64,000 bases of DNA from an uncultured Planctomycetales bacterium (GTDB taxonomy: Bacteria; 4484-113; JAFGCY01), in contig CAZEJB010000014.1 of assembly GCA_964512635.1 (NCBI GenBank), positions 15,704 through 79,703 on the forward strand, in the 5' to 3' direction. Numbering within the stretch: the first letter of the stretch is position 1; each line of letters opens with the position of its first letter. Positions 3,721-61,345 of this stretch are shown piece by piece. Position numbers and translations under genes: made by a program. Under the pieces are notes generated by a model. It was not told the DNA's origin. It did not search any database and worked only from the letters and a program-made list of their open reading frames with translations.

Positions 3721-4312
3721 CAGTTCCTCCTTGGAGAGCAGCAGTCGGCCACTTGGTATGCCGGCCTGCCGTGACACGGGATAAAGCCTAGCATGTGCGG
3801 ACCCGTTGCGGCGTCTGCGCCGAGGCGCGCGCTGCCCGCGGGCAGCGTTCAACAAGCTCACAGACGGGCCGGCCGGCGCAGTGGTTACCGGACAGCCCCG
3901 CTTCAGGGGCCTACAGCAGCCTCCAAAGCGTCCGAGAACGCGCATGCAGGGATAGAGCCGCGCGGGGCAGGGGAGGTAACGGGCCAGTGCGCGGACGATC
4001 CGTCCGCGTTTGTGTATTTTCCGGGAGTGCCGGGCCAGGCCCGGCATTTTTACCGGAACGCCGACCCGCCGCGCTTGCATCTCTTCCCGGAGCGCCGGTC
4101 GACCGACCGGCTTCCTGTCCCCCACGGCCGGCTGCAAGCCGGGCTCTTGCCCTGGGGCGCCAGCCATAGGCTGGCGTCCTCTCCGGCTGTTACAATCCCC
4201 GCAGATGTCCACTGCCCCGCAAAACCGGCAGCACAGCTCCGCAGGCCGCGCCGCGCCACGTCCGGTGGCACCGGCTTGCAACCGGTGGGTTTTCGCGGCT
4301 GCGCCGCGTGCT

Positions 4313-4425
4313 GGAGCGCCGGCTTCAGCCGGCATCTCCTGGGGAGCGCAGACTTCAGCCGGCATCTGCTGGGGAGCGCAGACTTCAGCCGGCATCTGCT
4401 GGGGAGCGCAGACTTTAGTCTGCAT
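4313..4425. repeat. Tandem of four GGAG-type REP-like palindromes (about 30-bp period)
   Basis: GGAGCGCCGGCTTCAGCCGGCAT, 2x GGAGCGCAGACTTCAGCCGGCAT, GGAGCGCAGACTTTAGTCTGCAT. Relatives at about 25155 and 27847-27902. Confidence 0.8.
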
Positions 4426-4486
4426 CTTCAAGCAGCGCGGACATCTTGCCCGCGTCGCCCGCTCGCGCGGATCGCGTAGCCGGCCG

Positions 4487-11415: not shown

Positions 11416-11937
11416 GTGATCTCGAGCCGGCAGCCTTCCCGCAGCATTGTGCTAACCGGCTTCTACGGCTCCGGGGCGCTGGATGTTGGCCGGGAGCTGG
11501 GCCGCAGGATGCGCCGGCAGCTGGTGGACTGGGACAGCGAGCTGGAGCGCCGCAGCCGCCGTGACCTGCTGGCGCTGCTGAACATCGTCCCGGAGCCCCA
11601 GCCGGAGCTGCATGAGCTGCGGATAGCCTCCGAACTCCCCTTCCGCCGCGACTGTGTGATTGTGCTGGGGCCGGAGGCGGTGCGCCAGGAGGTCTGGCCG
11701 ACGCTGTATCTTGAAAACACACTTACGGTCTTCATCGACCAGCCCTTTGAGGTCCTCTGGCGGCGGATCCAGGGTGACCCGGCCTGCCGGGACTACCTGA
11801 AAAGCACCAGCCGAGAACACGCCATGGCGGCCTGGCATGAGCTCTATCCGCTCTATGAACAAGCCTGTCTGCGCCTGACTAATCCGCCTAATCCGCCGCG
11901 GCAGGCCCGGGTCATCCTGCACAGCTTCTACACTTAA
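11416..11937 (+). CDS. Shikimate kinase-like protein with degenerate P-loop
   Basis: IVLTGFYGSGALDVGRELG..LVDWD.ELE, and R..LYE at the C-terminus. The Walker A Lys is absent. Confidence 0.7.
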   Translation: MISSRQPSRSIVLTGFYGSGALDVGRELGRRMRRQLVDWDSELERRSRRDLLALLNIVPEPQPELHELRIASELPFRRDCVIVLGPEAVRQEVWPTLYLENTLTVFIDQPFEVLWRRIQGDPACRDYLKSTSREHAMAAWHELYPLYEQACLRLTNPPNPPRQARVILHSFYT

Positions 11938-26006: not shown

Positions 26007-26013
26007 AGCTTAG

Positions 26014-27666
26014 TTAGATGTCTCCGCCGATGCCTTCGTCATGACCTCCGGGGTCGTCGTCGCCGGGATCATCATCACCCGGATCGTCATCACCTGGGTC
26101 GTCGTCACCTGGATCGTCATCACCTGGATCGTCATCACCTGGGTCGTCATCGCCGGGATCATCGACGCCAGGATCGTCATCGCCCGGATCGTCGTCACCC
26201 GGATCATCCACGCCAGGGTCGTCGTCGCCCGGATCGTCATCGCCGGGATCGTCCTTCAGGGTATCCGGGTCGAAGTGCTTGCCCTTGGGTGCACTGAAGT
26301 ACCACGCCGGGCTGGGCTCGGGGCCGGTCGGGCTGTTGATCCAGTCCACCCAGGCTTGAAAGCCGCTGTAGACGTTGAAGATCGACTCGCCCTCCAGCGG
26401 CCAGGCAAAGGTTGCCGGCACGATGAAGCCCAGCGGCACGCCCTTAGCGTCCACCGGGTCGCCGGGCTTCTGCCAGAGGCCCAGGCGGTACTCAGCGGCT
26501 TCTCCGGGCTTGACCAGCAGCTCAGGCTTGTACGGCAGCGGGGTATAGCTGCCCTGGGCCAGCGGCGGGTTGAAAGTCAGGGTTACGATGGCATAGTCGC
26601 CGGCGACCGGCGTAGTGCCCGCCTTGACGTTAGCGCCCCAGCCACCGGGGCTGGAGGGCAGCGCCTCAGCGGTGGGCGCGAAGACCGGCAGGCTGGTTCC
26701 GTCTATGCTGGTCCAGACGCGCTGGTCGAAGTGGCGCTGGTCGTTGGTATGCACCGCGTCGCCATTGTCATAGAACTGGTCGACCGTGGCAAAAACCCTG
26801 CTGCCGGGGAAGGCCCCGCCAATGTTCAGCTGCCAGTTGCTGGCATAGCCCGCGCCGCGCGCCAGGGCCTTGACCAGCAGGTTAATCTGCACCAGGCGGC
26901 CCTGCTTGTCGCGCAATTCTTCTGCGCGCAGCGAGCCGACATAGTCATTGAAGTCATAGTCGCTGCCGCCGTCCTTGACGTCCTCCCAGACCATCTGGGC
27001 CTGGCCGGCGTCGCTGCCCTGGGGATAGACCAGCGGGTCGGCGGTCGGCGTGGCGCTGAGGGCAAAGTCGAGGCTGAAGAAGTCGCCGGGCAGCAGCGGG
27101 CTGGCCGAGCCGTCCATGTTAAAGGGCAGCTGATAGCTGAAGACCGCCGTGTACTCACCTGTCGAGGAATGCTCGACGTCCCGCTCGACATAGCTCAGGC
27201 CGGCGCCGCGCACGACCCAGAAGCGGTCCAGCACGGTGCCGGCGGCCGCCTCATAGCAGACGTGCAGGTCGACCATGTCGCCGCTGCTGAAGGATCCGTT
27301 AGCCTCCCCGGGGACGGCTGCCTCGCCGTGGGCGCTGATGGCCATCCAGAGAAACTTGAAGCTCTCTCCGGCGGCCAGGGCCGAGCCGCGCCGCAGCGGC
27401 TTGAAGCTGACGGCTGCGCTGGCCGGGGCAAGCTGATATGCGCCGGTGCTGCCAGCAGCCTGAGTTGCCGCTTGCAGTGCGCTGGTTCCATGGCTGAGCT
27501 GCAGTCCGGTCTGGAATTTCAGGTTCAGCGCGGTCGAGCCATCCCCCGGCTTGGGGTTCTTGGGGATGTTGATCGGGGCGCCGTTATAGCCCCCGCACGA
27601 GGTCAGCAATAACACCAGGGCGGCCAGGGCGAGCAGCGCCGGCCGCGAAGCTGATTTGGGAAACAA
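26014..27666 (-). CDS. Lipoprotein with a LruC/DUF4842-like domain and an acidic DDPG-repeat tail
   Basis: LTSC lipobox, WED...DYDFND motif, P..F.WPLEG..I..VY..F..W. TTG start after GGAGG. Confidence 0.75.
   Translation of the reverse strand: MFPKSASRPALLALAALVLLLTSCGGYNGAPINIPKNPKPGDGSTALNLKFQTGLQLSHGTSALQAATQAAGSTGAYQLAPASAAVSFKPLRRGSALAAGESFKFLWMAISAHGEAAVPGEANGSFSSGDMVDLHVCYEAAAGTVLDRFWVVRGAGLSYVERDVEHSSTGEYTAVFSYQLPFNMDGSASPLLPGDFFSLDFALSATPTADPLVYPQGSDAGQAQMVWEDVKDGGSDYDFNDYVGSLRAEELRDKQGRLVQINLLVKALARGAGYASNWQLNIGGAFPGSRVFATVDQFYDNGDAVHTNDQRHFDQRVWTSIDGTSLPVFAPTAEALPSSPGGWGANVKAGTTPVAGDYAIVTLTFNPPLAQGSYTPLPYKPELLVKPGEAAEYRLGLWQKPGDPVDAKGVPLGFIVPATFAWPLEGESIFNVYSGFQAWVDWINSPTGPEPSPAWYFSAPKGKHFDPDTLKDDPGDDDPGDDDPGVDDPGDDDPGDDDPGVDDPGDDDPGDDDPGDDDPGDDDPGDDDPGDDDPGDDDPGGHDEGIGGDI
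26048..26253 (-). repeat. 15-bp coding tandem repeat, 14 x (D/V)DDPG
   Basis: Counted from the translated ORF. Confidence 0.9.
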
Positions 27667-28188
27667 GATCCACCTCCATGTGGCTGTGCCCAACACGGGC
27701 GCACGGGGCAAGCATAACCGCCCAGGCGCGTGCTCGGGCTAAAGGCGGGTTAACACCGCGTACAGCTTGGCCGGACGCTTTAAGCAAAGTGCAACCGCCC
27801 GCGTTGAGCGCTGCGCATAGCCTGTAACCCCGCACGGCATTTTTATGGAGCGCTGGGACTGGCCCGGCATCTTCGCTGGGGAGCGCAGACTTTAGACTGC
27901 ATCTCTCATTCGAGCAGCCTGGAACTTCGCTGCTATCCAAATCAAATCCAACAGGAGACGCAAAGACCCTGAGGATATGGAGGTCGTCGAGCCAGTCAGG
28001 CTGAAGTTCATGTCGACATTCCTGCACTCCGTACAGCGCAGCCGAGCAGCCCTCATTAGTCGCTGTGACTCAGTGTCTCCTGTTTGCTTTTGGATTTGCT
28101 CTGCGGCACCGCGGCTCTTTGTGAATCCCAGCTTTACGCGCCGGGGCACGACGCGCGCAGGGCGCCGCGCTGCTTTTGGGAGAATTGT

Positions 28189-33208: not shown

Positions 33209-33835
33209 GTAGGGGCGGGGTAGTATCCCCGCCCCGGTGGAGCCTGCTAGCAGCTGACTAAAGCAGTCCCTGGCGCTTGAGGTGCCAGCGCAGCGGGTTG
33301 CTGACCACATACTGGCGATGGAACTCAAGGTCCTTTTCGCCGTCAAGAGAGCTATCCCAAAACCCTGGTTGCCAGAATTGCCCATCGTAAGGTGGCCAGC
33401 CAAGCTCCCTGACACCAACTCCGTACTGCTTCGTACTGTGGCGCTTGAAGTTACCGATTACGGCTGACAAGTCGGGGCGCTGAGGGAAAACCTCAAGATG
33501 TGGATGCGTGAGTCGGGTTTCGACAATGCCAAGCACTGCATGGAAGTGGTCAGGCATGACAATGTGACAGTCAAGAACCAGTCCCGGATTATGTTCTGGC
33601 ATGGCCAGCCAGATCTCCTCGATTTTCCTGCCGATTGCGTTGAGCTCCAGGCTTCCTTCTACAATTCGTCCAAACAGTGGCCTGCGCTCTGCCAGGCAGA
33701 CTGTCACGAAGTAGTTGCCACGCGTGTAATCTATGCGAGGGTCACGCATCGAGTTGCGGCTGCGATAGTCCCTAGGATCTTCAGGCATCGTGCATTGTAG
33801 CCAACAGCCGGGCGGGGATGCTACCCCGCCCCTAC
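33209..33835 (-). mobile_element. RAYT locus: transposase gene between inverted GTAG-REPs
   Basis: GTAGGGGCGGGGTAGTATCCCCGCCC at 33209 and a near-identical reverse copy at 33810-33835. Confidence 0.85.
33258..33788 (-). CDS. REP-associated tyrosine transposase (RAYT, Y1/HUH)
   Basis: NYFVTVC, VMPDHFH (HUH), FKRHS, FWQPGFWD and QYVVSNP (catalytic Tyr). Confidence 0.9.
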   Translation of the reverse strand: MPEDPRDYRSRNSMRDPRIDYTRGNYFVTVCLAERRPLFGRIVEGSLELNAIGRKIEEIWLAMPEHNPGLVLDCHIVMPDHFHAVLGIVETRLTHPHLEVFPQRPDLSAVIGNFKRHSTKQYGVGVRELGWPPYDGQFWQPGFWDSSLDGEKDLEFHRQYVVSNPLRWHLKRQGLL

Positions 33836-34089
33836 AAGAAGATAAAGTGGGCTCTTGCTGTGCAAGCAGCCCGGAGATCCGCGCCAAGAGCAATGTCGCC
33901 CGAAAGAAGCGTGGGTCGCTGGCCAGGATTCTTCAACTCCCAGCGATATGCTTCGACCAACCTAATACAATAGGCGCCTTGTCGGACAGACCCACAGTTG
34001 ACCCGCCGGGAAGCGGGAATACGGGACAAAGTCCCGCGCTCCAACCTGAGCAGCCGGCCGGCTCGCCGCGGCGACTGCGTCTCCCGCCC

Positions 34090-40157: not shown

Positions 40158-41177
40158 TCAGAGGAGCTTCATCATCTCCCGGGCCAGCATACGGTTAAGG
40201 CGGTGGCCGCTGCGAAATGCTGTGACACGCCCGCTCCACTCCGCCGGCACGATATAGAGATCACCGATAAGGTCCAGCACCTTATGCCGCGCGTACTCGT
40301 CGGGGAAGCGCAGGGGACTGTCGGGGACCATCTCGGAGCGCGGACGATCCGTCCGCGAATCTTCAGGGAGCGCGGGACTGTGTCCCGTATCTTCGTCCGG
40401 AAGCGGACCACTGGTCCGCGCTCCGGTCTGCGGACTTAAGTCCGCGCTCCCAGCAGGCCGGATCACCAGCGCGTCCTCGCTGTGCGTGTTCTTCAACAGT
40501 CCCGCTGCGCTCAGCGCCTCGCCTTCGCGCTGAGTAATGAAGGTCCGCGCCGGGAGGATGCCGTCGACTGCCCACTTTCTTGTGATGTCACCAAAGCAGA
40601 CTCGCTGCTCTCCGAGTTCAGGATGACTGAAGGAGTAGTCGATGCTCAGTCGATAATCGGTTATGTCGCGGTTTCGTTCGATCAATATGTAGCTGCCATT
40701 CTCATCTTCGACCCTCAACTGCTCTACTGGCAGAATGGGTCGGTTTGCCGCCATGTACTCCACTCCCGCGGACGCGATCTCGTCATAGAGCGTCCTGGCC
40801 GAACCGTCGTGATTCGGCAGTTCAGTGCCGTTGTCCACCACAATGCGGCAGTGGTCGATGCCGGCGGCCCAGAGCGCGCAAAAGACATGCTCAATCACCA
40901 GCAGGGGCGGGCCGCCCTCGCCGGGCGGGAGCAGGGCCGTACAGTTGGGCAGCTCGAGGTAGCGCTCAGGCAGGGCGGGGTAGCGGTAGCCCTCGTGTTC
41001 AATCAGGATGCCGTGCGCGGCAAACTCCGGCGTGCTTTTCTCGACGTCGTAGGGGATTCCCCCGCGCTCGCATTCCTCGGGCGACAGCGCCGGGCGGATC
41101 TTGCAGGAACACTTGCTGCCAGAGAACAAACCCCTGCCAGAGAGGCCGACGCCGTGCTTGATGGTAGCTGAATGCAT
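40158..41177 (-). CDS. lpxC: UDP-3-O-acyl-N-acetylglucosamine deacetylase with an in-frame REP-derived insert
   Basis: G.GL.SG, IEH..CAL...GID, ELP..DGSA, I..ARTF, RF.DE..RHK.LD.IGDL and SGH.LN. Confidence 0.9.
   Translation of the reverse strand: MHSATIKHGVGLSGRGLFSGSKCSCKIRPALSPEECERGGIPYDVEKSTPEFAAHGILIEHEGYRYPALPERYLELPNCTALLPPGEGGPPLLVIEHVFCALWAAGIDHCRIVVDNGTELPNHDGSARTLYDEIASAGVEYMAANRPILPVEQLRVEDENGSYILIERNRDITDYRLSIDYSFSHPELGEQRVCFGDITRKWAVDGILPARTFITQREGEALSAAGLLKNTHSEDALVIRPAGSADLSPQTGARTSGPLPDEDTGHSPALPEDSRTDRPRSEMVPDSPLRFPDEYARHKVLDLIGDLYIVPAEWSGRVTAFRSGHRLNRMLAREMMKLL
40335..40451. repeat. Four GGAG-type REPs inside lpxC
   Basis: Units at 40335, 40367, 40402 (reverse) and 40429 (reverse). 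The second is essentially identical to the intergenic REP at 40041. Confidence 0.88.
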
Positions 41178-41265
41178 CGCAGCTAGTTATAGATGATGGC
41201 GGATGGCGGATGGCGGATGGCAGAGATGGAGGAATGAGGGTAGGGGCGCACGGCGTGCGCCCGGC

Positions 41266-41688
41266 TCACTTGACTAGTCTGATTGGCAAGCCCAATCCCT
41301 GAACTGACTCAACAAACTCTTGACGACCTCGGTCGGGCAACGATGCTTCCCACCAAGGCAGAACGTAACTTGAATGCGATTGCATAGGGTTATCGGGCAA
41401 TAGGATCGATCGATATCGGTAGTCAATGTCAGAGAGCGATTGTCTGAAGACAACATAGTCGGGCGATGTCTTATCCGAATAGGACGTTATGGCCTCTTCG
41501 AGCAGACGTCGGACGTCAAGGTCAAACATCAGTTCATCATAAATGTCGCCATAGCCAGATTCGCACGTCCCGACAAGCCTGTCCCATCCTTGCAATAGAT
41601 CCCACACAGCCACTGGCCGTCCATAACTCACCACAGTTCTCCAAACGAACTCTGCAAAAGGACCGTTTCGAAATTCTAGTGCCTTCAT
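41266..41688 (-). CDS. Low-GC hypothetical protein carried between inverted REPs
   Basis: 140-aa ORF with a GGAG RBS; AT-rich compared with the flanks. Confidence 0.6.
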   Translation of the reverse strand: MKALEFRNGPFAEFVWRTVVSYGRPVAVWDLLQGWDRLVGTCESGYGDIYDELMFDLDVRRLLEEAITSYSDKTSPDYVVFRQSLSDIDYRYRSILLPDNPMQSHSSYVLPWWEASLPDRGRQEFVESVQGLGLPIRLVK

Positions 41689-41815
41689 TTTGTGTGAATC
41701 AACTCCTCGAAATCACTCCGCAGCGCAAGCTATACGCCGGGCGCACGCAGTGCGCCCCTACATGTCTTCCCAGCGCCACGTTCCATCTGCCATCTGACAT
41801 TTGCCATCTGCCATT

Positions 41816-44815
41816 CTATGAGACCAGCTCCTTCAGCAACTCCCTCAGACTGAGTTGCGCGCTCGGCTTGACCTGGCTGGGGTCGGAGATGTCGCCAAAG
41901 ACGTCGTCGAAGAGGCCCTGCTTCTCTTTTAACATCTTCAGCAGCTTCTCCTCAACCGTGTTGCGGCACAGCAGGTTGATCACCACCACGCTGCCCTGCT
42001 GGCCCATGCGATGCGCGCGGGCGACGCGCTGCGCCAGCTTGGCCGGGTTAAAGGGCAGGTCGTAGTTGACCACCAGGCTGGCCGCCTGCAGGTTCAGGCC
42101 GGTGCCGCCGGCGTCAGTGCTGATCAGGATACGGCTCTTGCCCTCCTGGAAACGCTCGACCAGCTCGCGGCGGCCCTGGGCATCCACCCCGCCGTGCAGG
42201 AAGGCCGGGGCATAACCCGCAGCCGTCAGCTCGCGCAGCAGGATCTCGCCCATTCGCGTCCACTGGGTGAAGATGATCGCCTGGCGATCCAGCGTGCGGA
42301 TCTCGTCCTCAAGGATTGCGTTCAGCTCCGTGAGCTTCTGGCTTTCGCGCTGGCTCGGTTCGATCAGCTCCGGCGTGTCACAGACCTCGCGCAGGCGTTG
42401 CAGCAGGGTCATGGCGTTGTTGGTCGCCAGCTTGTCCCACTGCTCCTTGCTGAGCAGCATGCTGGTCTCGCCCTGCAGGTCCTTATAGAATGCGCGCTGG
42501 ATGTCGGTCAGGCTCAGCCAGCGCTCCATCTCGATCAGCGGCGGCAGTTCGGTGAGCGTCTGGGTCTTTGTGCGTCGCAGGGTCAGGGCCGCGATCTTGC
42601 GGCTGACTTCCTCGACCTTCTGATAGCCCTGGATGCCGCCGAAGCGGTCGAGGATCACGTAGCGGTCGCGGAAGGCCAGCGGGTTGGCGCCGAGAGCCCT
42701 GGGCTCGATGAACTTCATGATGGTGTAGAGCTCCATCAGCTGGTTCTCCAGCGGCGTACCGGTCAGGACAAACAGGTAGGGGCTGGCGAGGCTGAAGACC
42801 GACTGCGCGGTCTTGGTACGGAAGTTCTTGACGCGCTGGGCCTCGTCAAGGATCAGGATGTCGGGGGCCAGGGCCTTGAGCTGCTCGATATCGCGGTGGA
42901 CCAGCTCGTAGTTCACGATGTAGAAGAAGGGCATGTCCGCCGGGTCGTGGAAGATGCCGGGGAGCTGCTGCGCCTTGCCGGATGCCCTGGCATCCGCCTT
43001 GCCGGGCGGGCTGGCCAGGATCTGGTCCAGCAGCGCATCGGCTTCATCGCGCGCGCTGGCCTTCCTGGCCGCACGACCTGCCGGGGCAGGAGGGTCTTTA
43101 GCCTGCTGCGCCGCCGCAGCGCCTGTGGCGCGATCAAAGACTGCCGCCGCCCGATAGATCGATTCCCGCTCGTCCGGCCCGCCGCCAATAACCTCGCAGC
43201 GCAGTCCGGTGAAGCGCTGGATCTCGGACTGCCACTGGTACTTCAGCGAGGCCGGGCAGACAATCAGCGCGCGCTTCAAACCCTGCTTCTGTTTCAGGTA
43301 GAAGGCGGCGGTCATACTCTGCAGGGTTTTGCCGAGGCCCATGTCATCTGCCAGCAGGGCCCGCCGGTTGCTGACCAGAAAGGCCACCCCTTCGCGCTGA
43401 AAGGGGTAGAGCTTGGCTTTCACCGGCGTATCAGAATGGAGCGCGGAGTCTTCGGTGGGGCGGCCGGGCCGCTCAGAATGGAGCGCGTCTTCGGTGGGGC
43501 GGCCCTCAGTGGCCGCCTTCTTCTTATTCTCTGGCTTTGGCAGTCCCCACCACCAAACCCACTTATAGCCCTGTTCATTCGGCCAGCGCTTGTGAGGATT
43601 ATTCAAGATGTACTGCGCTTTCTCGAGAAGTTCGTCATCGTCTCGCATTATCCTATCGAGATACTCATCTTGCCAAAGGGACCCCACATAGCCTAACTCC
43701 TTTTGTGCAGTGTGGGCCGTAAATGATTTCCAGGAATGGACAACGTCCTCAAGGTAGTGCCCGGGCATAGGTTGCATGAGAACATGAACATGGTCGTCCA
43801 TCACGACGTAAGCAAAGAGGTGGTAACGCTGAGTGTCAAAGTGATGAATGGCACTGGCCACCAAATCACGGGCAGCTGGGCTCAGAGTTTGGTGCTTTTT
43901 GTTCAGCCTCCAGGTTACAAAGTAAGTTGAGTTACTTAGACGCCAGTGGGGAAGTCGGTGCCGATATTGAGAAAAATCGTCTTTGGCAGCTGGGATGGCG
44001 GCCAGTGACGGCCGCCCCACCGAAGAGTCCCGCGCTTCATCCTCGGCGCCCTCGCCGGCGATCCACTGTTCAAGCTCCTCCGCCAGCGTCTTTAGTCCCT
44101 CATAGTGATCCAGCACGGGCTTCACTGTTGGGTGTATGCGCACCTGCGCGCCGGCGACGTGCAGCCTGGCGACCAGTTCGGGGCAGTCCAGGGGCTGGCG
44201 CAGGGTATGCACCTGGTCGATATGCGCGGCAAGAATGCTGTGCAGTTCCGGCAACAGGAACTGCTCGGCGTGATAGGCCTGCACCTGGCGGAAGAAGGAA
44301 ATCGACTCTTCGAAACTGATCGCCCGGGCGCCGAACTCCTTCAGGGCCAGAGTGAAGCCCTTGTCGAAGCGCAGCTGGCCCTTGGCCCGGCGCAGCAGCT
44401 TCTCCAGGCGCCAGACATCAAAGTTGTCCCGCAGCGCTCCTTCCGTGCAGTACTCGCGCAGCAGGTTCTGCAACGGCCTGGCCGCCTCATGCGCCGGTGC
44501 GCTGACCAGGAAGCGCACTGACTGCGGCCCTTCGATGCCACGCTGCTTAGCACCGCTGAAGAGCACCACATAGCGCTGCATATGCGCGTCATAGGCCTTC
44601 TGCAGCGCTTCCCAGTCAGTGCCGGCAAAGAAACGGTCCGCCCGCGCGTCGCCGAGTTCTGCCAGCAGACTGGGGTAGGCCGAGTAGTCGCTGAGCGCAA
44701 AGCCGAAGCTGAAGTACTGGTTGATGATCCGGCGTATGTGCGGCGGCAGGCGCTGCTTGTCACCGCTGAAGCGGATCTCATCGCCGTTCTTGCCACCAAC
44801 TACCAGACGCGCCAC
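41816..44815 (-). CDS. SNF2-family helicase/ATPase with an internal RAYT transposase domain
   Basis: YPFQREG, LADDMGLGKT, LDEAQRVKN, LTGTPLEN, IFTQW and GG.GLNLQ.A..V...D.P.NPA...QR.ARAHRMGQ. Confidence 0.92.
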   Translation of the reverse strand: MARLVVGGKNGDEIRFSGDKQRLPPHIRRIINQYFSFGFALSDYSAYPSLLAELGDARADRFFAGTDWEALQKAYDAHMQRYVVLFSGAKQRGIEGPQSVRFLVSAPAHEAARPLQNLLREYCTEGALRDNFDVWRLEKLLRRAKGQLRFDKGFTLALKEFGARAISFEESISFFRQVQAYHAEQFLLPELHSILAAHIDQVHTLRQPLDCPELVARLHVAGAQVRIHPTVKPVLDHYEGLKTLAEELEQWIAGEGAEDEARDSSVGRPSLAAIPAAKDDFSQYRHRLPHWRLSNSTYFVTWRLNKKHQTLSPAARDLVASAIHHFDTQRYHLFAYVVMDDHVHVLMQPMPGHYLEDVVHSWKSFTAHTAQKELGYVGSLWQDEYLDRIMRDDDELLEKAQYILNNPHKRWPNEQGYKWVWWWGLPKPENKKKAATEGRPTEDALHSERPGRPTEDSALHSDTPVKAKLYPFQREGVAFLVSNRRALLADDMGLGKTLQSMTAAFYLKQKQGLKRALIVCPASLKYQWQSEIQRFTGLRCEVIGGGPDERESIYRAAAVFDRATGAAAAQQAKDPPAPAGRAARKASARDEADALLDQILASPPGKADARASGKAQQLPGIFHDPADMPFFYIVNYELVHRDIEQLKALAPDILILDEAQRVKNFRTKTAQSVFSLASPYLFVLTGTPLENQLMELYTIMKFIEPRALGANPLAFRDRYVILDRFGGIQGYQKVEEVSRKIAALTLRRTKTQTLTELPPLIEMERWLSLTDIQRAFYKDLQGETSMLLSKEQWDKLATNNAMTLLQRLREVCDTPELIEPSQRESQKLTELNAILEDEIRTLDRQAIIFTQWTRMGEILLRELTAAGYAPAFLHGGVDAQGRRELVERFQEGKSRILISTDAGGTGLNLQAASLVVNYDLPFNPAKLAQRVARAHRMGQQGSVVVINLLCRNTVEEKLLKMLKEKQGLFDDVFGDISDPSQVKPSAQLSLRELLKELVS
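43431..44020 (-). mobile_element. RAYT domain with inverted GTGG-type REPs, inserted in frame in the SNF2 gene
   Basis: RHRLPHW, TYFVTWRL, VMDDHVH (HUH), WKSFTA, LWQDEY.DRI.R and QYILNNP. REPs at 43494-43517 and 43997-44020. Confidence 0.9.
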
Positions 44816-47278: not shown

Positions 47279-47725
47279 GGAGCGCGGACCCATGGTCCGT
47301 ATCTTCTGCGCTGCGACAAGCCAATGTGGTGCGGGGATCAACCACAAAGATCACAAAGGTTCACGAAGAACACGAAGAGTAGGAATAGAGCCTGGAAGCT
47401 GCCTCTGAGCTGTCATTCTGATGTAGCCAAGGGGGCTGGCAGAGTCTTAGCCTTAGTGCTCTTGGTGCTGCTTGGTGGGCCTGATGTTGAGAAAAGCCAT
47501 GTCCAGCTGTTCTGCTTTGCGTTCTTCGCGAGCTTTACGCTGTGATCTTTGTATGGCAGGTCCGGGACGGCCGAACTGGGGTAGGGGCGCACAGAGTGCG
47601 CCCGGCATTTGGCTCGCTGCCCAGAGCAGCGAATGACAATACCAATCCAATTCGCGGCCCCGGTAGGGGCCGGGCGCACGCGGTGCGCCCCTACAAGGCA
47701 AAAACGGACCATGGGTCCGCGCTCC
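47279..47725. repeat. Nested repeat array: a GGAG-REP pair enclosing a 9-bp array pair and a GTAG-REP doublet
   Basis: Outer REPs at 47279 and 47702-47725; 9-mers at about 47342-47376 and 47515-47550; GTAG doublet at 47581-47694. Confidence 0.8.
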
Positions 47726-53258: not shown

Positions 53259-53711
53259 GTGGAAACTCCTGATTCAACCCTGCGCGACATCACCGCTCTG
53301 GTGGACAACAGCATGGCTCACGCCACTGAGTGCCTGAAGAAACATGCGGCCTTTGTCCCCTTCAGCGTGGTCATCATGCTGGATGACACCTACCGCGTCT
53401 ACTCCAGCAGCCGTGACCAGACTGCCGGGGACTATCAGGAACTGCTGGGGCAGATGGCCGGCCTGTTAGGCGCCGCCTACGAGAATGGCCAGATCCGGGC
53501 CAGCGCCCTGGGTGTCCGGGTAGCAGCGCAGATGACACCGGGAGAGCTGCACCAGGACACTCTGCTGCTTGAGCTTGAGCATCTGGACGGCTCGGCGATG
53601 AAGTACTTCATCCCGATCGAAAAGCCGGTCTTCGGCGCGCCGCGCCTCGGCAAGGCTGTGGCTGCCCCGCATAAGCGCCGCTTCGTGCCCGACCCGGGCC
53701 AGGATGGATAG
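53259..53711 (+). CDS. Hypothetical protein
   Basis: Host-like codon usage; TATGAT-N6-GTG start. Confidence 0.6.
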   Translation: METPDSTLRDITALVDNSMAHATECLKKHAAFVPFSVVIMLDDTYRVYSSSRDQTAGDYQELLGQMAGLLGAAYENGQIRASALGVRVAAQMTPGELHQDTLLLELEHLDGSAMKYFIPIEKPVFGAPRLGKAVAAPHKRRFVPDPGQDG

Positions 53712-53717
53712 AGGCAT

Positions 53718-53910
53718 GTAGTGGCCCACTGCGTGCGCCTTGGAGCCTGATCCGTGTAGAGGCGCACTGCGTGCGCCTTTCCTAAATCCTCAGAAGGCGC
53801 ACGCGGTACGCCACTACAAAGACCACGGACACGCCGGTCATTGCGGCAGGAAAAGGGCCGCATTTCTGCGGCCCTTGTATCAATATTCTCCATCTGCCAT
53901 CTGCCATCAG
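53718..53910. repeat. GTAG-REP cluster, terminator hairpin and 7-bp array
   Basis: REPs at 53718, about 53756 and 53795-53817; AAGGGCCGCA..TGCGGCCCTT at about 53853; CCATCTG units at about 53890. Confidence 0.7.
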
Positions 53911-60914: not shown

Positions 60915-61345
60915 GAAATGGCGGATGAAGGATGAAGGATGACGGATGAAGGATGACGGATGGCGGATGACGGATGGCGAATAGCTGATGGTTGATGGCG
61001 GAGGGCTCATTTCGGAGGACGAATGGCAAATGGCGAAGGGAGAGGCGCGTGGAGCGCACCCGGGCAGGCAGTCTGCGAGCTGCTGGGTCATGAGTAGGGG
61101 CGCACAGAGTGCGCCCGGCCCATCGCGATAGGCTGGATTTGGATGACAAGTTGGCCTTGTATCAAAGCGGAGCTAGTCATTAGCGATCCGAAGCGTTCAA
61201 TATTGTTGCCGGGCGCACTCTGTGCGCCCCTACGCCTCTTCGTTGTGGCTCTGCATAGGGTTACCCGTACACGCTCCACGCGCACCTGTATCCCCATTCG
61301 CGTTCCGCCAATTAGCCATTAGCCATCAGCCATTAACCATTCGCC
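60915..61345. repeat. Inverted 7-bp arrays enclosing a GTAG-REP doublet
   Basis: GATGAAG/GATGACG/GATGGCG units; REPs at 61094 and 61211-61233; CCATTAG/CCATCAG units. Confidence 0.8.

Follow-up and report, generated by a model that had tools for sequence, protein, structure and literature searches.

REP-associated tyrosine transposases (RAYTs), and the REPtrons that they form with inverted repetitive extragenic palindromes (REPs), are well described as stand-alone systems, as is their structure (Ton-Hoang 2012, PMC3333891; PMC3479197; Corneloup 2021, PMC8266576; Bertels 2017, PMC5581495). They are usually seen as single-copy, domesticated transposases that spread REPs and REP doublets forming hairpins (REPINs), and their expression, retention and exchange are debated. 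REPs that lie in frame within genes are already known, as are the Rickettsia palindromic elements (RPEs) (Di Nocera 2013, PMC3733652), and a phylogenomic survey excluded TnpA_Y1 proteins that were ‘unexpectedly long’, regarding them as fused genes or annotation errors (PMC6006769). Our literature searches, which paired RAYTs with SNF2, helicase fusions and inteins and also covered REPtron insertion into open reading frames (ORFs), recovered the work on intragenic REPs and no description of an in-frame transposase. Here we describe such an arrangement in a 64,000-nucleotide stretch of DNA from an uncultured Planctomycetales bacterium (contig CAZEJB010000014.1, positions 15,704 to 79,703, assembly GCA_964512635.1; hereafter the window), in which a complete RAYT between inverted REPs lies in frame inside a gene for an SNF2-family ATPase.

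A RAYT between inverted REPs in an SNF2 gene

An earlier note on this DNA had placed the hallmarks of a RAYT within a 999-aa SNF2 ORF, between its N-terminal domain and its helicase, and profile hidden Markov models assign the segment accordingly. The motifs LPHW, YFVTW, DDHVHVL, WQDEYLDRIMR and AQYILNNP occur at residues 288-408 of the ORF. Pfam places Y1_Tnp (PF01797) at residues 294-405, ahead of the SNF2-related domain, with 35.2 bits against a gathering cut-off of 23, and both the HUH motif and the catalytic Tyr fall within this domain. The NCBIfam model REP_Tyr_transpos (NF047646) matches over positions 4-146 of 146 with 74.1 bits (E 1e-20), narrowly missing its equivalog cut-off of 80 bits when scored within the 999-aa protein.

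Relatives of the RAYT were searched for in a collection of 5.8 billion proteins. The nearest are stand-alone RAYTs of ~150 aa (E 1e-54, 55-63% identity, 90-97% coverage), and when the insert is aligned with 12 of these it spans from the position of the initiator Met to a few residues short of the stop. In a family alignment of 14 sequences, comprising these 12 together with the inserts of the window and of a second filled orthologue (P0003), all 31 invariant columns are present in both inserts. By this comparison, the insert is a whole RAYT minus its Met and stop, and no fragment. The AlphaFold2 (AF2) model of the segment has a confident core (predicted local distance difference test, pLDDT, 85-97). 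Among solved structures, Foldseek ranks first E. coli TnpA_REP in complex with a REP hairpin (4er8_A; E 1.1e-8, root-mean-square deviation 2.4 Å), followed by the TnpA proteins of ISDra2 and IS608 (E 1e-6 to 1e-5), and the modelled fold thus appears nearer to TnpA_REP than to IS200/IS605 TnpA. A sequence search of the PDB with the same segment returned IS200-type TnpA only, TnpA_REP being found by the fold comparison. In the full-length model (mean pLDDT 83) the RAYT, at residues 290-420, is a confident separate domain, and the disordered stretches on either side of it (264-289 and 421-461) are the peptides encoded by the REPs.

The ends of the insert also agree with what had been read from the letters, namely a dip in GC content, an inverted palindrome pair, a short tandem duplication, and translated REPs with no stop and no evident start. 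GC content is 0.47-0.52 across 43525-43975 and 0.62-0.68 in the flanks, and at third codon positions (GC3) it is 0.43-0.63 within the insert as opposed to 0.77-0.97 elsewhere in the SNF2 gene. The two 33-nt arms of the inverted repeat, at 43488-43520 and 43994-44026, pair at 30 of 33 positions (91% complementary), whereas the best inverted 33-nt match among 200 shuffles of the region reached 26 of 33. Each arm holds a 7-bp GC hairpin, GGCGGCC-N6-GGCCGCC, and a GGTGGGG head. We write this REP-A unit as GGCGGCC-N6-GGCCGCCCCACC, the window type being listed as GGCGGCC-N6-GGCCGCCCCACCGAAGA. The downstream arm is duplicated in tandem (43431-43465 and 43473-43504). The upstream REP is composite, as judged from inverted repeats, the codon view, the hairpin fold and a REP-B consensus built from dispersed copies (Table 1).

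The codon view shows no in-frame stop within the insert, and the ORF runs on into SNF2 at both sides. Ahead of the RAYT core there is no ATG or TTG, and the sole GTG lies within a REP and lacks a well-spaced Shine-Dalgarno sequence. The window RAYT is thus without the start and stop of a stand-alone gene. Both REP arms are translated as in-frame palindromes that are absent in orthologues, and the junction peptides of the predicted chimera read …EDEARDSSVGRPSLAAIPAAK… and …AATEGRPTEDALHSER…. An out-of-frame TAA coincides with the end point of the stand-alone homologues and may be a relic of the original RAYT stop, bypassed via a frame shift. A scan for promoters and terminators gave only two matches, both sigma-70-like and at 43598-43676 on the minus strand, where the 3' part of the RAYT is richer in AT; they face the ATPase core (TTGGCA-18-GATAAT, 10/12; TCGAGA-17-AATAAT, 9/12). 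The scan gave no match upstream of the RAYT; such scans are unreliable in this lineage and were given no evidential weight. We also considered and rejected an intein. The earlier note had seen no intein terminal motifs, Pfam likewise finds no intein or Hint family, and the junction peptides (SSVGRPS... and ...GRPTED) lack the splicing residues, a terminal His-Asn followed by Cys, Ser or Thr.

The host protein is an SNF2-family ATPase, with SNF2-rel_dom at residues 472-816 (145 bits), Helicase_C at 834-938 (90 bits) and conserved GLGKT, DEAQ and QRxxRxxRxGQ motifs. Its N-terminal domain (residues 1-262) has no Pfam match. The closest solved structure, found with the empty orthologue P0010 as the query, is that of the SsoRad54-like protein 1z63 (E 1e-48). 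The named bacterial SNF2 subfamilies (RapA, DrmD, ZorD, pilus-regulating Snf2 and SCO1167) all score below their NCBIfam equivalog cut-offs, the top score being 254.6 bits against a cut-off of 1100 and the others also falling far short, and by these profiles the host is a member of an unnamed subfamily. Compared with its closest relative, locus L001 of the NCBI metagenome-assembled genome (MAG) ‘bacterium SJ870’, the window host gene has a synonymous divergence (dS) of ~0.5 and a ratio of non-synonymous to synonymous divergence (dN/dS) of 0.18 in the N-terminal domain and 0.14 in the ATPase core, which argues that the gene is kept under purifying selection while bearing the insert. ATPase lobe 1 also contains a GC-rich low-complexity insertion of ~55-65 aa (~42940-43150, residues ~556-625; …ATGAAAAQQAKDPPAPAGRAARKASARDEADALLDQILASPPGKADARASGKAQQ…), which is shared only with the L001 protein and which the AF2 model shows as disordered in part.

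Table 1. Coordinates of the SNF2-RAYT gene, its REPs and the related units discussed in the text
Feature	Position	Strand	Description
Host gene, SNF2-family ATPase ORF with insert	41816..44815	minus	999 aa, GTG start; from ORF list and Pfam
N-terminal domain, family-specific, aa 1-262	44030..44815	minus	kept across all orthologues; AF2 pLDDT >90
SNF2 ATPase core, aa 466-999	41816..43420	minus	Walker A (GLGKT), DEAQ box and motif VI (QRVARAHRMGQ) intact
Complete RAYT (Y1 HUH) domain, aa ~280-425	43541..43978	minus	HUH motif is DDHVHVL; catalytic Tyr in AQYILNNP
Upstream (5') composite REP	43994..44043	minus	REP-B-type head (GGATGAAGCGCGGGAC), then REP-A hairpin GGTGGGGCGGCC-GTCACT-GGCCGCC; translated ...EDEARDSSVGRPSLAAI...
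Downstream (3') REP-A copy 1	43473..43520	minus	GGCGGCC-ACTGAG-GGCCGCC hairpin, CCACCGAAGAC, tail GCGCTCCATTCTGA; translated AATEGRPTEDALHSE
Downstream partial REP-A copy 2	43431..43472	minus	tandem duplicate (GGCCGCCCCACCGAAGACTCCGCGCTCCATTCTGA); from inverted-repeat search and codon view
Out-of-frame TAA	43525..43527	minus	inside AT-rich AATAAGAAGAAG; from codon view and alignment with stand-alone RAYTs
REP-B copies in the window	34022, 40041, 40136, 40367
REP of filled locus L001			CGGGACAATGTCCCGCGCTCCATCC; 37 nt, 95% complementary
REP of filled locus L002			CACGGACAnnnTGTCCGTG; GGTGG heads
REP of filled locus L003			27-nt unit GACCCCAGTnGCGCAACTGG...; four tandem copies upstream, inverted downstream
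RAYT unit in valS	L020 3629-4347		in frame between ...HFWYMRYPL and VATTRPETMLGD of ValRS; HVH and Tyr motifs intact
RAYT unit in DUF1156 methyltransferase gene	L021 1741-2394		in frame; 27-nt inverted repeat, 93% complementary
RAYT unit in creatininase-family gene	L022 3780-4478		in frame; 25-nt perfect inverted repeat

Filled and empty alleles, cassettes and other host genes

The earlier note had suggested that orthologous SNF2 genes be aligned in search of an empty allele, and most of these orthologues proved to be empty at the linker. About 30 close orthologues of ~740 aa have the SNF2 domains without Y1_Tnp in a search with the full protein as the query, and synteny is kept, the gene order M20 peptidase-SNF2-LpxC being common to filled and empty loci. 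Apart from the window protein (P0001), Y1_Tnp is carried by three orthologues only (P0002, which is the L001 protein, P0003 and P0004), so that 4 of ~35 are filled overall. In the alignment, the inserts all fall in one linker of low conservation, which connects the N-terminal domain to the helix ahead of YPFQ. Scanning with the N-terminal domain gave three loci in GTDB representative genomes, namely L001 and two empty ‘Planctomycetales’ MAGs, and 11 loci in metagenomes, one of them filled with the same protein as P0003; neither scan yielded a new filled allele. All of the loci are metagenome-derived (MAGs or metagenome contigs), and P0003 is found in both ENA and JGI records, to which the reads may be common.

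A tree built from the host parts puts the filled genes in three clades, each with an empty sister. The filled and empty sisters are 82% identical in one clade (P0003 and P0010) and 76% in another (P0004 and P0015), and the third clade is that of the P0001/P0002 pair. Because empty sister alleles exist, we rejected an old, fixed domain architecture.

Automatic names hide or mislabel the SNF2-RAYT architecture. The 1016-aa P0002 (L001 10001-13051) is named merely ‘transposase [bacterium]’ by NCBI, and P0004 is called ‘superfamily II helicase/REP element-mobilizing transposase RayT’ by JGI. Such a name on a 1016-aa orthologue is a warning for annotation, as is the discarding of long TnpA_Y1 proteins from the survey cited above. 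Upstream of the P0004 gene, by 1.4 kb, lies a 169-aa ORF (L003 5135-5644) with a weak, sub-threshold Y1_Tnp likeness (21 bits). The SNF2 gene of another orthologue, P0014, has an in-frame REP doublet without a RAYT in a loop of its N-terminal domain, which includes a REP-A-like hairpin, GGCGGCC-AGGGAC-GGCCGCC; the P0014 linker itself holds three copies of a 30-nt tandem repeat (doublet and tandem repeat together at L023 2130-2185 and 2655-2744).

In each of the four filled orthologues the RAYT lies between inverted REPs, as in a REPtron, and the REPs are of four differing kinds (Table 1). The GC3 of each insert is below that of its host gene. The RAYTs divide into two subfamilies that do not follow the host tree, a short type in P0001 and P0003 (62% identity) and a long type in P0002 and P0004 (51%). 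P0001 and P0002 share 90% identity in their host parts, whereas their RAYTs share 44%, differ by a 35-aa indel and are saturated at synonymous sites (proportion of synonymous differences 0.86). The window and L001 nevertheless have the same upstream outer sequence, AGGATGRAGCGCGGGAC, with a REP-B-type head, and an orthologous decayed REP-A copy (window 43431-43472 and L001 ~11445-11486; 79% identity by hand count). Since non-orthologous RAYTs here sit among shared REP remnants, the linker was probably already occupied in the common ancestor of the window and L001, with a later exchange of the cassette that may have gone through recombination of the shared REP tails.

A search for further RAYTs within genes, which the earlier note had also proposed, turned up other hosts. 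This census comprised the best 150 matches of one query, the L001 RAYT, in a HMMER search of 1.84 billion representatives, and three loci were checked in detail. Fifteen of the 150 are proteins of at least 405 aa; nine of these, plus one FabA protein of 385 aa, have a host family beside Y1_Tnp in Pfam. Among the hosts are a valyl-tRNA synthetase, two DUF1156/D12 methyltransferases, a creatininase-family protein and a metallophosphatase (Metallophos), and further a HAD hydrolase, a 4Fe-4S protein, a C-terminal fragment of DnaE and a DinG-like helicase fragment. The three checked loci, in valS, a DUF1156 methyltransferase gene and a creatininase-family gene, come from other metagenomes and MAGs and have the RAYT unit in frame between inverted repeats (Table 1), which in valS are a 47-nt pair of GTAG-type REPs. 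To judge from these genes, the in-frame arrangement is not specific to SNF2.

The REPs that flank the L001 RAYT (REP-B) are multi-copy: the 23-kb L001 locus has three further copies and the window has four, whereas REP-A occurs at one locus within the 64 kb. GGTGG heads accompany the short RAYT type and GGAGCGCGGG-like heads the long type in L001, L021 and L022; the long-type L003 and L020 have different heads. The neighbouring LpxC ORF of the window (40158-41177, minus) contains a 37-aa in-frame insert (AGSADLSPQTGARTSGPLPDEDTGHSPALPEDSRTDRPRSE) at ~40333-40454 with four REP-B-like hairpins, which is absent in the 82%-identical LpxC of L001 and in three further orthologues.

Several other repeats and a transposase-like ORF were seen in the window. 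Between LpxC and SNF2 (41195-41809) the intergenic region is 638 nt long, against 155 nt in L001, and holds (GGATGGC)n heptamer repeats and inverted GTAG-type REPs (GTAGGGGCGCAC-N4-GTGCGCCC) at 41239 and 41740, which enclose a 140-aa ORF (41266-41688, minus) with no Pfam match. GTAG-type pairs without cargo lie at ~47566-47702, ~53703-53819 and ~61079-61241. A stand-alone, divergent Y1/HUH-like ORF at 33258-33893 on the minus strand (HIVMPDHFHAVL ... YVVSNP), with a sub-threshold Y1_Tnp score of 18 bits, is situated between an SBP_bac_5 gene and an ABC permease gene and adjoins the REP-B copy at 34022-34042; it is a candidate for a second RAYT-like gene in the source genome. Further away are a 30-nt tandem array at 4308-4427 built of a hairpin repeat (GGGGAGCGCAGAC-TTYAG-YCKGC), with a lone copy 23 kb off at 27875-27904, and a long 15-nt coding tandem repeat at 26009-26293 with at least 14 overlapping copies.

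Weighing the explanations

The reading that we favour, with a probability of roughly 0.6, is that a REPtron lives in frame in a permissive linker of the SNF2 gene as a selfish passenger, resembling an intein that does not splice. The RAYT and its cognate inverted REP hairpins would reside in a disordered linker of a conserved chromosomal gene, and the RAYT, without a promoter, start or stop of its own, would be made only through translation of that gene. It would fold independently as an extra domain tethered by the disordered peptides that the REPs encode, and the SNF2 protein would stay functional, its linker tolerating the additional domain. Persistence would be aided by the expression that the host provides and by the harm that a sloppy deletion would do to a constrained gene. 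The site would also turn over, with differing REP/RAYT cassettes in related lineages and a swap in the window/L001 pair.

The starting point of this reading, a whole REP-RAYT unit in frame that could be expressed solely with the host protein, had been put forward in the earlier note, and the empty orthologues, the end-to-end RAYT match and the REP flanks agree with it. The intact catalytic core and the lack of stops across ~590 nt argue that the RAYT domain is maintained and not decaying, and its sequence suggests that it is most likely still an active single-stranded DNA (ssDNA) HUH nuclease on its REPs. The inserts occur in a wide range of host genes, are patchily distributed, have foreign codon usage and still possess their REP ends, all of which points to a selfish passenger. 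The earlier note had left two options, silent hitchhiking and a dedicated helicase-nuclease. The former fits better, because REP-RAYT-REP units also lie in frame in valS, the DUF1156 methyltransferase gene and the creatininase-family gene, which are unrelated hosts.

A number of points weigh against the passenger. No REP-A copy lies elsewhere in the 64-kb window, so that current mobilising activity of the window RAYT is unsupported. The chimera is known from metagenome assemblies alone, and its expression and activity are predictions. The reading does not account for the way in which a viable unit sheds both its start and its stop. The short-type RAYTs of P0001 and P0003 are mutual best matches and neighbour-joining sisters (30% bootstrap), and a single old in-frame insertion with many later losses is an alternative to independent insertions. 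The filling of the same linker in three clades exceeds what random insertion would lead one to expect, and could reflect a functional tie to SNF2.

This recurrence could have other origins. REPs tend to cluster beside existing REPs, as in bacterial interspersed mosaic elements (BIMEs), and such clustering could favour reuse of the site. It could also reflect the survival of in-frame insertions at permissive sites only, or recombination of cassettes. A real functional link to the SNF2 protein seems to us an improbable cause.

Of the rival explanations, a tolerated relic survives best, although we consider it unlikely. In this case the unit, inserted or inherited in frame, would now be a neutral and catalytically irrelevant spacer domain whose decay or deletion is pending. 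The absence of REP-A from the remainder of the window would suit a relic, as would the state of the ends, with a duplicated, partly truncated downstream REP and with REP-B heads truncated at both junctions; the REP inserts without a RAYT in LpxC and P0014 further indicate that such insertions are tolerated. A neutral spacer is, however, hard to reconcile with the retention of the HUH motif, the catalytic Tyr and every invariant position in the window and P0003 inserts, and with catalytic motifs that are also kept in P0002 and P0004. None of the seven verified loci has a frameshift or stop over ~590 nt of AT-richer sequence, and at the dS of ~0.5 that separates even the closest pair, neutral sequence would have gained stops.

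Slightly less probable still is a domesticated helicase-nuclease, in which the SNF2 translocase and the RAYT are selected as one enzyme and repeated capture reflects a functional advantage. ATP-driven translocation or supercoiling could, for example, extrude REP hairpins for nicking by the HUH domain. Fusions of HUH nucleases with helicases exist elsewhere, as in the Rep-Hel protein of Helitrons and in relaxases, and the filling of one linker in three clades by four cassettes, in frame and with catalytic residues intact, would be expected of such an enzyme, as would a constrained host joined to an intact RAYT. Selection for a single enzyme sits poorly with an insert that only 4 of ~35 orthologues have and that sister genes lack. 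The inserts also retain foreign codon usage and the REP inverted repeats of a mobile element, comparable units occur in ValRS, a methyltransferase, a creatininase-family protein, a HAD hydrolase and FabA, and the AF2 model puts the RAYT on long disordered tethers.

An assembly or gene-calling artefact, with a mobile element misjoined into the SNF2 gene, is very improbable: REP-like repeats can mislead assemblers and the data all come from MAGs and metagenome contigs, but four independently assembled orthologues are filled at the same linker and in frame at both junctions, P0003 recurs in two archives (if possibly from shared reads), host motifs resume on either side, and orthology between the flanks of the window and of L001 extends through the junctions.

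Beyond the selfish passenger in this one gene, we propose, as about an even bet, that RAYT REPtrons have an unrecognised lifestyle as open-ended in-frame residents, analogues of inteins without splicing that borrow host expression, are shielded by host selection and can be exchanged as cassettes via their REP tails. If true, this would be a new strategy of persistence and expression for a bacterial mobile element, with hosts as different as an SNF2 ATPase and an essential aminoacyl-tRNA synthetase, and it could help to explain the vertical persistence of some single-copy RAYTs. If the fusion were functional instead, it would be the first SNF2-HUH nuclease. The filled and empty alleles would form a natural set for studying RAYT excision, insertion and cassette exchange.

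Comparison with known systems

REPtrons, typified by TnpA_REP of E. coli (PDB 4ER8), are the closest described system. The insert shares with them the Y1 HUH motifs, the closest fold and the flanking inverted REP hairpins; the REP head mostly covaries with the RAYT subtype, and the REP of the L001 type has dispersed genomic copies. Known RAYTs differ in being stand-alone genes with a start and a stop, whereas that of the window is open-ended and an internal domain of its host, and its own REP type is confined to one place in the 64 kb. With IS200/IS605 elements (TnpA Y1) the insert has in common a homologous Y1 fold and subterminal hairpins at both ends. These elements move by an ssDNA mechanism with seamless excision, and the same would be expected of the insert. 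Unlike them, it has no TnpB partner, lies nearest to the RAYT clade, gives no evidence of multiple copies and is located in frame within a gene.

The HUH-helicase fusions of Helitrons (Rep-Hel) and relaxase-helicases likewise combine an HUH nuclease and an NTP-driven motor in one polypeptide. In those proteins the motor is a superfamily 1 helicase, the fusion is C-terminal and the architecture is ancient and universal; here the motor is a superfamily 2 (SNF2) translocase on double-stranded DNA, and the insertion is patchy, recent and bounded by REPs. Inteins with homing endonucleases offer a parallel of lifestyle, in that a selfish nuclease element sits in frame in a conserved gene, is expressed by the host and is shielded from imprecise loss. 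They differ in their Hint domain and splicing junction residues, both absent here, so that the RAYT presumably stays in the mature protein, and the HUH/Tyr chemistry on ssDNA hairpins and the REP ends are unrelated to inteins. Finally, intragenic REPs and RPEs are, like the REPs of the window LpxC and of the P0014 SNF2 gene, in-frame palindromic insertions whose translation yields surface or linker peptides. Those elements are short (20-150 bp) and non-coding, whereas the insert in the SNF2 gene includes a complete transposase.

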